A stretch of DNA of 64,000 nucleotides, from positions 74,746-138,745 of the forward strand of contig JBPOIB010000001.1 in assembly GCA_052034935.1 (NCBI GenBank), given 5' to 3'. Source of the stretch: Candidatus Moraniibacteriota bacterium (GTDB taxonomy: Bacteria; Patescibacteriota; Minisyncoccia; Moranbacterales; UBA1568). Within the stretch, counting starts at the first letter, position 1. Every line of letters starts with the position of its first letter. Below the pieces are notes generated by a model. That model did no database searches. It had not been told where the DNA came from and was given only the letters and a program-made list of their open reading frames with translations. Shown here in pieces: positions 717 to 51,211 of this stretch. A program made the position numbers and the translations under genes.

Positions 717-726
717 CGAGATGAAT

Positions 727-821
727 CCCGTTAGAGATTGATGAAACAATAACCATGACTTAGGAATGGCATCAAAATGGAATAGGCAGGATGAGGTTAT
801 CAAATCTGTATCTCTAACGGG
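727..821. mobile_element. MITE-like palindromic-terminus element, copy A (95 bp)
   Basis: CCCGTTAGAGAT at 727-738 and its exact reverse complement ATCTCTAACGGG at 810-821 (12/12 bp). Both are flanked by the direct repeat ATGAAT (721-726 and 822-827). The internal 71 nt is related, in inverted orientation, to the element at 50425-50521. Confidence 0.5.
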
Positions 822-2402
822 ATGAATTACGAATTACTGAATGCTTTGCGTGGTTGGCGTGATGAACAGGCTCGGACTGAGGGCGTAGAGGGGTATCGCG
901 TCTTGAATAATGCGGCACTCGAGGAGCTCGCGCGGACGCTTCCGACGACGAAGGAGGGGCTTTGCGAAGTGAAGGGAATCAAGGACGCGAAGTATCGGAA
1001 ATACGGCAAGACATTGCTTGGTATGATTGCTTCGTTTACGGGCAAAGCGAACGGTACGACGGAGGGTGAGCAAGCGATAGCTGCTTTCGAACAGAGCCTG
1101 GTCGCGTCTCGAGAGAGCACTGCTGGCGAAGATCTAGAAAGTGTGCAGGCCGGTCCGGCGGAGCCGCTCTCGGTCTCGCAATTCCTCGACAGCCTCAATA
1201 TGGAGCTTTCCGGGATGGCTGCCCGGATCAAAGGCGAGGTGTCGAGTGTCGATGTCCGCGAACGGGTCGTGTATTTTAGTTTGAAAGATAGTCAGGATGA
1301 AAGCCTCATCAGTTGTCTTATTTTCCGCTACCAGTATGATGTCTCGGGCGTGAAGCTTGCGATCGGGGACGAGATCATCGTCGAGGGAGCACCGGATATC
1401 TACAAGCCGTCGGGCCGGCTCAGTCTGAAAGTCGGCATCATCGAGTATGCTGGTGAAGGTGAGCTGAAGAAAGCCTATGATGCGCTCTACAAGAAGCTCG
1501 AGTTGTCAGGTGCGTTTGCTCCCGAACGGAAACGACTTATTCCGGAATTTTCCGAGCGGATTGCGCTCATCACTTCCCGTGAAGGAGCAGCCATCGGGGA
1601 CTTCACGATGAATCTGGCTCGCTCTGGCATGCACGTCGATTTCTACCCGACCTTGGTCGAAGGAAAGAAAGCGGTGTTCGAGATCATCGAAGCAATCCGT
1701 TTCTTCAATCAGACACCGGAGCGGTATGATGCGCTCGTCATCATCCGCGGCGGTGGTAGTCTCGAGAGTTTACAGGCTTTCAATACCGAAGCGCTTGCGA
1801 ATGAAGTGCTCGGATCGGTGATTCCGGTTTTGGCGGGTATCGGCCATGAGCGCGATGTCTCGCTCGCAGCGCTCGCGGCCGACCATATGGTCTCGACCCC
1901 AACGGCGACGGCCCGCTATCTCTCGGTTTCGTGGGATGAGGCGCGCGCGAGTTTGGGCAAGCAAACGCTCGCTCTTGATCGGGTGGTGAGCGAATTTCAG
2001 GCTGAAATCGAAACTCGAATCCACAATGCCGAAGAAGCGATGCGGGACATGCTCTCGGCGCTTTCGCAAAAAGTAATCATGACACAGATGGCGTTTCGCG
2101 AAGCGGTGGCGCTTTTCCCAGGTCAGTGCCGTTCGCTTGGTGATCGGATCCAGAATGGTACCGCCTTGTGGAAAACGCATATCGAAGCGGCACTGTCGCG
2201 GAGTCGCGAGGACTTGCGGTCAGCCGGGGAGCGGCTGCGACAGTATGATCCGGTCCGCGTGCTCACGCTCGGGTATTCGATTGTCCGTAAAGAAGGTCGG
2301 ATTCTCCGAGGGAGCGGAGATGTCGCCGTCGGGGACCGTATCGATATACAACTCGGCTCGGGCAGGGTAGAATCGGAAGTAATCACCGTAACACAGTCCT
2401 AA
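822..2402 (+). CDS. xseA: Exodeoxyribonuclease VII large subunit with an N-terminal HRDC domain fused
   Basis: Residues ~5-70 (ELLNALRGWRDEQARTEGVEGYRVLNNAALEELARTLPTTKEGLCEVKGI...YGKTLLGMI) resemble the RecQ/RNase D HRDC fold. They are followed by an OB fold and an XseA catalytic core (ALITSREGAAIGDF..., IIRGGGSLESL..., AGIGHERDVSLAALAADH...). Confidence 0.85.
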   Translation: MNYELLNALRGWRDEQARTEGVEGYRVLNNAALEELARTLPTTKEGLCEVKGIKDAKYRKYGKTLLGMIASFTGKANGTTEGEQAIAAFEQSLVASRESTAGEDLESVQAGPAEPLSVSQFLDSLNMELSGMAARIKGEVSSVDVRERVVYFSLKDSQDESLISCLIFRYQYDVSGVKLAIGDEIIVEGAPDIYKPSGRLSLKVGIIEYAGEGELKKAYDALYKKLELSGAFAPERKRLIPEFSERIALITSREGAAIGDFTMNLARSGMHVDFYPTLVEGKKAVFEIIEAIRFFNQTPERYDALVIIRGGGSLESLQAFNTEALANEVLGSVIPVLAGIGHERDVSLAALAADHMVSTPTATARYLSVSWDEARASLGKQTLALDRVVSEFQAEIETRIHNAEEAMRDMLSALSQKVIMTQMAFREAVALFPGQCRSLGDRIQNGTALWKTHIEAALSRSREDLRSAGERLRQYDPVRVLTLGYSIVRKEGRILRGSGDVAVGDRIDIQLGSGRVESEVITVTQS

Positions 2403-5636: not shown

Positions 5637-5906
5637 TTACTCTGGGAAAACCTGCTTACCGTTCTCATCCTTGATTCGGATGGCGGCGACCGGACAGCCG
5701 CGGGCAGCGTTCAGGATGGTTTCCTGGTCGTCCGCATCGACCGTCGAGAGGATGCCTGCCTTGCCGGCGTCATCGAGCGCGAAGGTATTTGGTGCCATCG
5801 CAGTGCAGGGGGCAGCCCCGATGCAGACACCGTGGTCAACTTCGACGGTCCAGCCGTTACTGAGGGTTACCGGACCGGCGGGTTTCGTTTCATCTTTCCA
5901 TGCCAT
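5637..5906 (-). CDS. Small ferredoxin (single [4Fe-4S]/[3Fe-4S] type)
   Basis: An 89-aa protein with a VDHGVCIGAAPC...RGCPVAAI cysteine pattern, sitting between sufU and the DUF59 gene. Confidence 0.75.
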   Translation of the reverse strand: MAWKDETKPAGPVTLSNGWTVEVDHGVCIGAAPCTAMAPNTFALDDAGKAGILSTVDADDQETILNAARGCPVAAIRIKDENGKQVFPE

Positions 5907-5915
5907 AAGATGTAG

Positions 5916-6034
5916 AGCTTTTAAAATTTAGCGTATTTCTTCGTTACAAACTCTGGTGCTCGCCGTCGTATAAAAAATACGACTTACTCCGCCCCTCGTC
6001 TGTTCCTCGAACTCCGCCTAAATTTTTAAAAGCT
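5916..6034. repeat. AT-rich inverted repeats inside the suf operon (internal promoter/operator or attenuator candidate)
   Basis: AGCTTTTAAAATTTA (5916-5930) and TAAATTTTTAAAAGCT (6019-6034) are inverse complements with one indel. A nested pair CGTATTT / AAATACG lies between them. The whole region is the 135-nt gap between sufU and the ferredoxin gene. Confidence 0.4.
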
Positions 6035-50366: not shown

Positions 50367-50424
50367 AAACCGCTTCGACGTGGGATGATTGCTCCAGGTG
50401 GAGGCAGAGAAGAGCCCTATTGAC

Positions 50425-50521
50425 CCCGTTAGAGATAACGTGGGTTTTTCATGCGAAACGCCCTGCCGATAATGCCTGAGATGAAGCGTTTTCGATGCCT
50501 AATAACCGAATCTCTAACGGG
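50425..50521. mobile_element. MITE-like palindromic-terminus element, copy B (97 bp, inverted relative to copy A)
   Basis: CCCGTTAGAGAT at 50425-50436 and ATCTCTAACGGG at 50510-50521. It is flanked by TTGAC (50420-24) and G+TTGAC (50522-27); the right flank forms the -35 box of the downstream promoter. The interior shares GGCATC(G)AAAA / CCTGCC blocks with copy A in reverse orientation. Confidence 0.5.
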
Positions 50522-50522
50522 G

Positions 50523-50551
50523 TTGACAAAAAGCTCTTTTTTTGCTAGTAT
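50523..50551 (+). promoter_or_regulatory. Sigma70 consensus-like promoter TTGACA-N17-TAGTAT
   Basis: TTGACA at 50523-28 and TAGTAT at 50546-51, 30 nt upstream of the wzz-like ATG. The same TTGACAAAAG…TAGTAT architecture recurs at 54516 and 63733. Confidence 0.5.
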
Positions 50552-50581: not shown

Positions 50582-51211
50582 ATGCCGATGAACAATGTTT
50601 TGGCTCTACTGTGGGGAAAAAAGGGGAGTGTCTTCCTTTTTGGTGTCTTCGTGTCCGCTGCGGTCTTCTTCGTTGAGACAGCGGTATCGCCGCGTTACGC
50701 TGTGCGAACCGACTTCATGGTGGTACAATCATCTGGCTCTCAGGACTTCTATACGCTTTTCAAATCGTCCGAATACCTGAGCAAGGTCCTTTCCGAATCG
50801 CTCTATAGCGAGCGCTTCATCAACGCCGTCATTGAGACGGGCAAGGTGAGCGCACAGGGATTCTTGCCGACCAATAAGAAAGACCGGCTCACTGCTTGGC
50901 GCTCGATGGTCGCGGTCGAAAAGAATATCGAACTCGGCATGCTTGCCGTGACCGTGAAGTCCGATACCGAGAAAGAGGCGTCGAAGACGATGGACGCGAT
51001 TTCGGATGTTCTCATTAACCGCAACAAAGAATTCCGCGGCGGCGATGAGAAGGCGATCGAGATCCGCATCCTCTCCGGTCCGATCAGCGACCGTAATCCG
51101 AACCCGAAAGACCTACTTGTACTCGCTCTCGCAGGGTTCATCGCCGGCGCTTTCATCCGCTCCGCCTGGATCGCGGTGAAAGTCATCGATACTTCAGCGA
51201 AACGAGGATAA
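50582..51211 (+). CDS. Wzz/chain-length-determinant-like protein (two TM, short periplasmic domain)
   Basis: An N-terminal TM followed by SPRYAVRTDFMVV (the P-x-Y-x-A…V pattern of Wzz N-termini), and a C-terminal TM (LLVLALAGFIAGAFI). Confidence 0.55.
   Translation: MPMNNVLALLWGKKGSVFLFGVFVSAAVFFVETAVSPRYAVRTDFMVVQSSGSQDFYTLFKSSEYLSKVLSESLYSERFINAVIETGKVSAQGFLPTNKKDRLTAWRSMVAVEKNIELGMLAVTVKSDTEKEASKTMDAISDVLINRNKEFRGGDEKAIEIRILSGPISDRNPNPKDLLVLALAGFIAGAFIRSAWIAVKVIDTSAKRG

Follow-up and report, generated by a model that had tools for sequence, protein, structure and literature searches.

Ssn proteins are single-domain GIY-YIG nucleases of ~94 amino acids (aa) that act specifically on hairpin repeats in single-stranded DNA (ssDNA) and cut just upstream of the repeat, and the repeat-gene-repeat layout of their loci was called IS-like, i.e., resembling an insertion sequence (IS), by their discoverers (Chenal et al. 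2025, PMC11893778). Functionally, Ssn proteins with their NTS repeats and the REP/RAYT system are the closest described counterparts of the element reported here, and its structure resembles the pairing of an insertion sequence with its miniature inverted-repeat transposable element (MITE). The element occupies positions 726–822 of a 64,000-nucleotide stretch of a Candidatus Moraniibacteriota genome (assembly GCA_052034935.1, contig JBPOIB010000001.1, positions 74,746–138,745, forward strand; the whole analysed stretch is henceforth called the window) and ends on the start codon of the gene for an HRDC-XseA protein. It is read here, with a probability of roughly 0.72, as a non-autonomous representative, lacking any gene, of a family of minute mobile elements that have 13-bp ends, a T-N-N-A target duplication, and a nuclease-coding full form of ~274 bp, with the nuclease probably acting in trans on the termini. 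All evidence was obtained computationally. A literature search of limited reach (covering the terminus sequence as well as GIY-YIG elements of candidate phyla) returned nothing relevant beyond the Ssn paper, and the family is apparently previously undescribed.

The likeness to Ssn/NTS consists of a single-domain GIY-YIG protein of ~90 aa (86 aa here), a gene lying between copies of its own conserved inverted-repeat sequence, and many gene-less repeat copies in intergenic DNA, which are sometimes clustered; a looser resemblance exists between the left flank here, (T/G)TCAT-CCCG, and the NTS sequence CGTCAT-TCCCG. With the bacterial MITEs Correia, RUP, and ERIC, the family shares non-coding units of ~50–150 bp with terminal inverted repeats and short target duplications, multiple intergenic copies that often lie beside gene starts, and the occurrence of copies that arose by internal deletion from a coding parent bearing identical ends. 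REP/BIME repeats with RAYT (an IS200/IS605-like TnpA) and REPINs likewise combine a small nuclease gene between its own palindromic repeats with gene-less inverted repeat doublets dispersed in intergenic regions, a model of single-strand hairpin recognition, and a likely continuum from selfish to domesticated. Finally, in the Neisseria intergenic mosaic elements (NIME; dRS3-flanked RS units), variable segments of 50–150 bp are enclosed by a conserved inverted repeat, sometimes in tandem, which is comparable to the loci L047, L089, and L109 of the present dataset (numbers with the prefix L denote loci).

At the xseA start, CCCGTTAGAGAT (727–738) is the exact reverse complement of ATCTCTAACGGG (810–821) with 71 nt between them, and ATGAAT is present on both flanks (721–726 and 822–827). 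The right-hand ATGAAT opens the HRDC-XseA open reading frame (ORF; 526 aa, 822–2402, plus strand), the start codon of which abuts the element at offset 0 and the orthologs of which carry the Pfam domains HRDC, tRNA_anti_2, and Exonuc_VII_L. The left-hand ATGAAT lies 4 nt past the stop of a LamG-like ORF (ORF end 716) and opens the ORFlet MNPVRD* (721–741). The repeats, the flanking ATGAAT copies, and the ORFlet, as well as a second copy at 50425–50521, had been described in a first-pass annotation of the window and were confirmed. Its delimitation of the element as a 12-bp repeat with a 6-bp duplication fits this copy equally well, but is slightly off according to the statistics of the family, which favour 13 + 4 bp (see below). 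Applying the latter, copy 1 consists of a left terminal inverted repeat at 726–738 (T + CCCGTTAGAGAT), an interior of 71 nt at 739–809 with no detectable relation to the interior of copy 2 or to the nuclease gene, and a right terminal inverted repeat at 810–822 (ATCTCTAACGGG + A), the final A being the A of the xseA ATG. The target copies TGAA are located at 722–725, within the stranded original start codon ATGAAT, and at 823–826, within the working xseA start (all plus strand). The perfect inverted repeat measures 14 bp in copy 1 and copy 2 alike.

Copy 2 carries an interior of 73 nt between perfect CCCGTTAGAGAT and ATCTCTAACGGG ends and has a flank repeat of its own (aTTGAC / gTTGAC). Its left terminal inverted repeat (C + CCCGTTAGAGAT) spans 50424–50436, the interior 50437–50509, and the right terminal inverted repeat (ATCTCTAACGGG + G) 50510–50522. 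The left target copy TTGA (50420–50423) is the stranded half of a -35 box, and the right TTGA is part of a rebuilt promoter-like site (50523–50551, plus strand like the preceding features) upstream of the gene at 50582, which consists of TTGACA, 17 nt, and a TG-extended -10 hexamer TAGTAT and reached 10/12 matches in a promoter scan. The hexamers flanking this copy differ at their first base (A versus G); no mutation is needed for this because the G is the element's own in the 13-bp model.

Both copies in the window are insertions, because syntenic relatives hold empty sites with a single target, and each insertion rebuilt the signal that it had split. Orthologs of xseA in Moranbacteria-like genomes are 74–84% identical at the aa level and keep the synteny LamG-xseA-xseB-POR. 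In two of these genomes (L253 and L255), the same element with a homologous interior is present at xseA. In two others the element is absent and one hexamer remains, with the junction reading ...TAG atcaaagaacattc ATGAAC tacgaattact in L254 and ...atcagat ATGAAT tacgaattatt in L256; the compact junction that the first-pass annotation had predicted for removal of the element and one repeat is thus found in nature. In the window, the duplicated TGAA together with the terminal A of the element remade an ATG directly against the terminus, and the old ATGAAT, stranded upstream, now opens the ORFlet with its six codons MNPVRD. The second position gave the same result. Orthologs of the 50582 gene in L279 and L280 have a single (G/A)TTGACA, 17 nt, and TAnTAT without the element, and the window reads ATTGAC, element, GTTGACA-17-TAGTAT. 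A decayed copy at the position of copy 2 was detected in L277, which belongs to the same metagenome-assembled genome as L255. As a separate observation, a gene with Cas2 and PaaX_M Pfam hits (711–1265) replaces the LamG-like gene upstream of xseA in L256, and the synteny upstream of xseA is therefore not fixed.

The xseA identity matrix is not tree-like, as two genomes that share only 77% identity with each other share 84% and 83% with the window, and precise excision in the L254 lineage is for this reason not claimed. Sliding identity of the xseA in the window to those in L253, L254, and L255 is mosaic, indicating homologous recombination among Moranbacteria-like populations. Between the window and L255, a tract of high identity comprises the element and ~100 nt of xseA.

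Paired termini were searched with the pattern CCGTTAGAGAT-N55-85-ATCTCTAACGG, which has 22 fixed bases and for which ~1 chance match is expected in the 596-Gb collection of species-representative genomes. This collection and metagenomes were scanned, and at least 120 matches were obtained in each. Further copies, for which the first-pass annotation had suggested a search along with the one for empty sites, were found in the form of paired termini on >240 contigs, compared to ~1 expected by chance. The scanned length range of 77–107 bp was set by the search gap, and units of ~48 to ~124 bp are also present in the fetched loci. A single terminus pair is present in 185 of 241 sources (240 loci and the window), and multiple copies per contig occur, e.g., four matches on JACPBG010000001.1 and two in the 64-kb window. 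The hosts are mostly Patescibacteria (Saccharibacteria, Parcubacteria/Paceibacterota, and Moranbacteria), with others in Omnitrophota (contigs of 420–593 kb), Nitrospirota (a 1.72-Mb contig), Planctomycetota, Elusimicrobiota, and further groups. This cross-phylum spread is not a binning artefact because copies are located on long contigs in Omnitrophota and Nitrospirota. The paired-termini pattern had 0 matches in viral contigs, and carriage by phages was rejected on that ground.

Some loci depart from the solitary arrangement. In the Omnitrophota locus L047 (5948–6055 and 6423–6474), mini-units of 51 nt (12 + 27 + 12) with near-identical interiors were found, two of which are in tandem and share one GTTCAC hexamer, so that the junction is a 30-bp palindrome, array-like as in dRS3/NIME of Neisseria. 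A CRISPR-like array was considered for this locus in view of the 30-bp palindromic junctions and 27-nt 'spacers' and rejected, because the prevailing units are solitary and have target duplications, and a cas context was not seen. Four to five terminus-bounded units are clustered round a nuclease gene in L089 (5275–6170, on the 1.72-Mb Nitrospirota contig) and L109 (5357–6868); some of these termini are degenerate, and the clusters resemble nested or serial insertions outside Patescibacteria. A group I catalytic intron (Rfam RF00028, 82.9 bits) was detected at 47–313 of the Saccharibacteria locus L104, a few hundred bases from a short element.

The anatomy of the family was determined from 261 non-redundant copies, with partner-shuffled flanks serving as controls for direct repeats. 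The left 12-mer is adjoined by Y and the right one by R, and these two bases are complementary in 95% of the copies versus 49% expected (z = 17). They form a covarying 13th pair of the inverted repeat, the ends of the family being Y-CCCGTTAGAGAT ... ATCTCTAACGGG-R; the next pair outward (A...T) has no covariation beyond the consensus (z = 2). Left and right hexamers agree at 3.78 of 6 positions, versus 2.54 ± 0.07 for shuffled partners. The direct repeat is strongest at the left-flank positions L-5..L-2, equivalent to R+2..R+5 on the right (z = 4.4, 15.5, 13.6, and 6.3), and weaker, albeit significant, at the outermost positions (z = 5–6). The most economical reading is a 13-bp inverted repeat with a 4-bp T-N-N-A duplication (TGAA at copy 1 and TTGA at copy 2) inside a symmetric R-T-N-N-A-Y preference; it is preferred over 12 + 6 bp because the 13th pair covaries and the direct repeat peaks at these four positions.

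The start-codon position seen at xseA is a rule of the family rather than a peculiarity of the locus. Among the 198 elements with enough flank, an ORF of at least 80 codons begins at offset 0 of a single end in 66, the start codon being ATG, GTG, or TTG, and in no element do both ends have such a start; the other offsets (1–29) have 0–6 ORF starts each, and a control placed 50 nt further out has 3. In the 13-bp model, the terminal R of the element and the duplicated TGAA remake ATG or GTG. The flanks have a constant polarity with respect to the interior and to gene orientation: oppositely oriented family members have reverse-complemented flanks, and copies that can be oriented by the 3' remnant of the nuclease gene always read ATG(A/G)A forward.

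Longer intervals between the same termini contain an ORF of 86 codons. In L197, the unit of 274 bp begins after ATGAAT with CCCGTTAGAGAT, followed by catac and the ATG of this ORF, and closes with cgcttcct and ATCTCTAACGGG, after which ATGAAA follows. Intact 274-bp units with the same termini and flanks of the ATGAA type were found in L197, L199, L241, L257, and L267, and the loci selected by protein alone, i.e., L241 (CP060230.1, a complete 619-kb Nomurabacteria genome), L247, L257, and L267, have perfect termini. The encoded protein is a single GIY-YIG domain (Pfam PF01541, E = 1e-17, residues 1–68) with no other domain. A protein-only search returned at least 2251 homolog clusters (90% identity), nearly all exactly 86 aa long and with generic or wrong names. 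The last four codons, S-L-T-G, are the right terminus itself (read A-TCT-CTA-ACG-GG); a C-terminal TG is present in 79/79 and FLSLTG in 59/79 of the protein-selected 86-aa homologs. In L197, the duplicated target supplies the stop (GGA-TGA), which overlaps the start ATG of a RuvX-like gene downstream; an overlap of 4 nt (ATGA) with the next gene was observed in every context examined. In L267 both junctions overlap, and the target was the ATGA stop/start overlap of the operon, because the TGA of the upstream gene also lies in the left ATGAAT. This arrangement leaves no space for a promoter belonging to the nuclease gene. Over-called N-termini of the nuclease read MNPVRD, MSPVRD, or MIPLET, which is the left ATGAAT and the terminus as codons, MNPVRD being the same as in the ORFlet of the window. 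Public gene calls (P0029, P0031, P0055, P0093, and others) are often 93–95 aa long and start with MNPVRD or MIPLET; the extension results from placing the start at the stranded host start codon, from which the called frame runs through the left terminus. This frame continues into that of the nuclease in some copies, in which the N-terminal extension may genuinely be translated.

A transposase of the IS630/Tc1 or IS200/605 type, which the first-pass annotation had proposed as the partner of the element, was not recovered; between the same termini, the GIY-YIG nuclease was found instead. IS630/Tc1 elements have a TA duplication and a DDE enzyme, the duplication here is T-N-N-A, and the nuclease is the sole gene found between the termini. 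IS200/605 elements have an HUH TnpA with neither inverted repeats nor a duplication, both of which are present here. Ends of the Tn3, IS5, or IS982 type were dismissed as well, as no transposase of any kind is present between the termini in 1.6 Mb of loci. Integron attC sites (5'-RYYYAAC ... GTTRRRY-3') have, by inspection, the arms in the opposite order (GTTAGAG 5' and CTCTAAC 3' here), and no integron context was found for the window copies, each of which stands alone among housekeeping genes.

Purifying selection acts on the nuclease ORF (codon-position identity ~0.78 / 0.89 / 0.55), the residues of its Y-x-Y, YTG, R, H, and E motifs are at least 90% conserved, and different species retain the nuclease gene in one syntenic slot, between YqeY and a holin-like gene. 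Selection and slot, together with the Ssn/NTS precedent, speak for a domesticated repeat system, in which a host ssDNA nuclease would act as Ssn does in Neisseria, the terminus pairs would be its recognition sites and modulate natural transformation, recombination, or repair, and the insertions would be ancient and fixed. Many Patescibacteria are thought to rely on DNA uptake. Units form clusters or arrays in some genomes, like the NIME/dRS3 arrays of Neisseria, and the interior of copy 1 is 89–94% identical to the orthologous copies in L253 and L255, with third codon positions of xseA 48–69% identical across genomes. Domestication is nevertheless considered unlikely as the full explanation: presence/absence polymorphism exists at two sites among close relatives, the copy at one site has decayed in L277, and target duplications as well as the same interior family at unrelated loci require insertion events. 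It is, moreover, compatible with mobility, as domestication in the style of REP/RAYT follows mobility.

The nearest solved structure to the nuclease is the UPF0213 protein BH0048 (1ZG2, E = 6e-8), and a weak NCBIfam match is to a group I intron endonuclease. GIY-YIG is the classic fold of homing endonucleases, and homing-type spread, with a free-standing homing endonuclease cutting empty alleles, the element being copied by homologous repair, and the short copies being decayed homing sites, would agree with this match and with the occupation of the same slot in different species; the tract shared by the window and L255 resembles a co-conversion tract. Homing, however, does not predict conserved inverted repeats at the ends of the element, target duplications, or insertions at numerous unrelated loci with T-N-N-A as their sole common feature, and the 86-aa protein is devoid of the DNA-binding domains of known GIY-YIG homing enzymes, which renders this the least probable of the explanations considered, with very little weight.

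Most of the short copies have interiors unrelated to one another. Thirty-four of them retain the ...CGCTTCCT 3' remnant of the nuclease gene beside the right terminus, a profile of the gene matched 5 interiors (0 in shuffled controls), and a 57-nt family fuses the first and last few codons of the gene; gene remnants are present in ~40 copies in total. Judged by these sequences, some short copies are clearly internal-deletion derivatives of the nuclease unit. That all short copies arose in this way was rejected, as derivation is detectable for a minority only. Twenty-six interior families recur at different loci in different genomes, and dispersal of gene-less units is therefore argued. One interior family has eight members (L005 5043, L014 4712, L082 4778, L083 7331, L187 4600, L189 671, L221 2956, and L238 1397) at different loci in different Patescibacteria, with the core AGCCGxGAGGCGGCTTCGCCTTA, flanks that always have GT(C/A)AAC polarity, and no Rfam match. 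In the window, the interiors of the two copies are not alignable in either orientation (score at or below the shuffle mean), and copy 2 has a weak remnant of the 3' end of the nuclease gene on the minus strand (50483–50491; AAACGCTTC, then ATCTC), for which the score of 25 compares to 15.2 ± 3.1 and 7/1000 shuffles were equally good. In L034, a whole tRNA-Ala(cgc) gene (5909–5982, minus strand) fills the interior of a terminus pair (5897–5998) flanked by ACCCGC and GTGAAA. These flanks do not form a direct repeat, and the tRNA gene may have been captured as cargo or may lie between two termini by coincidence.

Both window copies fold far better than shuffles (z = -3.9 to -5.5), which, with the highly non-random start-codon position at offset 0, the ORFlet that reads through the 5' arm of the stem, and the good conservation of the copy 1 interior in orthologs, would fit a cis-regulatory RNA hairpin. 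In this explanation, the unit of ~95 nt acts as transcribed RNA, its 14-bp closing helix at a start codon or promoter tunes translation or stability, and spread is secondary. One subfamily of 57–60 nt (e.g., L157 1272, L172 3063, and L213 436) has an additional subterminal hairpin, GGAAGCGC-TA-GCGCTTCC, directly inward of the right terminus, in which 5/7 pairs are compensatory and 100% of cells pair, the rows having been hand-picked. The fold score is, however, dominated by the inverted repeat itself, the interiors are completely different between copies, and copy 2 lies upstream of a -35 box, so that it is probably outside the transcript of that gene. No Rfam family was matched in the window at the gathering threshold, over 650–900 at E <= 1, or overlapping elements in 16 loci. 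An RNA function leaves the flanking direct repeats unexplained, and the high identity of copy 1 continues through ~100 nt of xseA, as expected from recent common ancestry rather than from selection acting on the interior; such selection is accordingly not claimed. A structured RNA, which the first-pass annotation had held out as its alternative, is hence improbable as the primary explanation, given that duplication and presence/absence are signatures of DNA insertion. An intrinsic terminator was discarded as there is no T-tail, as were the C/D-box-like or hammerhead-like motifs of copy 1 (UGAUGA), which are present in neither copy 2 nor other copies.

Several points weigh against the reading as a mobile family with a nuclease acting in trans. 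The 64-kb window contains no nuclease gene (tblastn E > 1), and the reading presupposes a source acting in trans from elsewhere in this genome. Recent jumps would be indicated by identical nuclease proteins at more than one locus; these were looked for, and each protein examined was found at a single locus only. GIY-YIG nucleases hydrolyse DNA, and strand-transfer or ligation chemistry is not known for them, so that 'transposase' is an unproven label. Of 256 interiors, 188 are singletons and most are not detectably derived from the nuclease gene, which holds for the window interiors too, apart from the weak remnant in copy 2. Several old copies (L247 and L034) are without a matching duplication. 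The excess at start codons could partly reflect survivorship in gene-dense genomes instead of targeting, and the genomes with occupied and empty xseA sites are recombinant, so that neither precise excision nor insertion age can be inferred from them.

With regard to the described systems, the proposal of the first-pass annotation that the element is a MITE stands in so far as it is a non-autonomous inverted-repeat insertion with a target duplication. Terminal inverted repeats, a target duplication with single-copy empty sites, small non-coding dispersed copies, and ends common to a coding element were all found. Shared interiors are partial only (26 small families and ~40 remnant-bearing copies versus the singletons above), and the family is not a classic homogeneous one. 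It further differs from MITEs in that the parent encodes an 86-aa GIY-YIG nuclease and not a DDE, serine, tyrosine, or HUH transposase, in that interiors are mostly unrelated between copies, and in that identical 12-mer ends are conserved across phyla. Typical insertion sequences measure ~0.7 kb and up, and the unit of 274 bp is far smaller. In REP/RAYT the enzyme has an HUH Y1 fold instead of GIY-YIG, REPs are individually palindromic without target duplication, and IS200/605 elements are without terminal inverted repeats. The Neisseria mosaic elements have another repeat sequence and other host phyla, whereas solitary units with target duplications predominate here. NTS/SRM repeats are self-contained hairpins of 20–50 nt, whereas the termini here are half-sites that pair across the whole unit, which spans 48 to ~124 nt or, if the gene is present, 274 bp. 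Unlike NTS, for which neither is reported, the units here have target duplications and empty sites, and the terminus encoding the C-terminus of the protein and the start-codon or ATGA-overlap arrangement are further differences. The hosts here are mainly Patescibacteria, which are absent from the text of the Ssn paper (PMC11893778). The SRM motif (HGTCWY-N0-2-YYVSBRH-N0-5-WNVSBRG-N0-2-RNCYNB) matched neither the window nor the surroundings (±500 bp) of 11 nuclease genes (0 matches in both), with the NTS consensus matching as a positive control. As this motif failed and the nearest structure is a UPF0213 protein, the family would, on present sequence comparisons, not be filed as a member of Ssn/NTS, the nucleases of which form CDD family cd10448.

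For the mobile family, the following course of events is proposed. By analogy with Ssn, the termini would be the cis site of the nuclease, probably as a hairpin in ssDNA, and the mobilisation of gene-less copies would be due, in trans, to a nuclease gene residing elsewhere in the genome or in the population. For their expression, full-length copies would rely on host translation signals, with the host start codon reading into the left terminus and the stop (GGA-TGA) overlapping the regenerated host ATG, by which ribosomes would be handed back to the host gene. In the window, ribosomes on the ORFlet would traverse the 5' arm of the stem (14 bp), by which the hairpin would be opened and the AUG of xseA become accessible, and the hairpin of copy 1, if transcribed, may affect xseA translation. 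A bolder version, which we regard as tentative and rather doubtful, is that the 274-bp unit is the smallest self-mobilising protein-coding DNA element and the first GIY-YIG-driven DNA transposon. Its 86-aa enzyme would recognise the 13-bp ends of the unit when these form a single-strand hairpin, make its cuts at T-N-N-A, and insert, exact to the base pair, at start codons, stop/start overlaps, and -35 boxes. The host signal would be restored by the insertion, translation of the element would be coupled to that of the host gene, and gene-less copies such as the one at xseA would be passengers of a system that spread to at least five phyla.

If it is true that the nuclease mobilises these units, DNA transposition would gain a new chemistry (GIY-YIG), and the lower size limit of autonomous elements would have to be redrawn; this would also explain thousands of orphan 86-aa genes annotated as 'GIY-YIG nuclease family' or mis-named 'excinuclease ABC subunit C' in genomes of candidate phyla. 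For annotation, the position of one third of the copies exactly on start codons entails gene-caller artefacts, i.e., MNPVRD-extended proteins and mis-placed starts. The recent work on Ssn as sequence-specific ssDNA nucleases, which are of biotechnological interest, is also extended by a large protein family of high uniformity, for which a candidate recognition sequence is sharply delimited. For the hosts, the design would be that of a parasite sparing dense genomes: the TGAA duplication preserves the upstream stop and the downstream start, and the nuclease stop overlapping the regenerated host ATG would allow ribosomes to pass back to the host gene.

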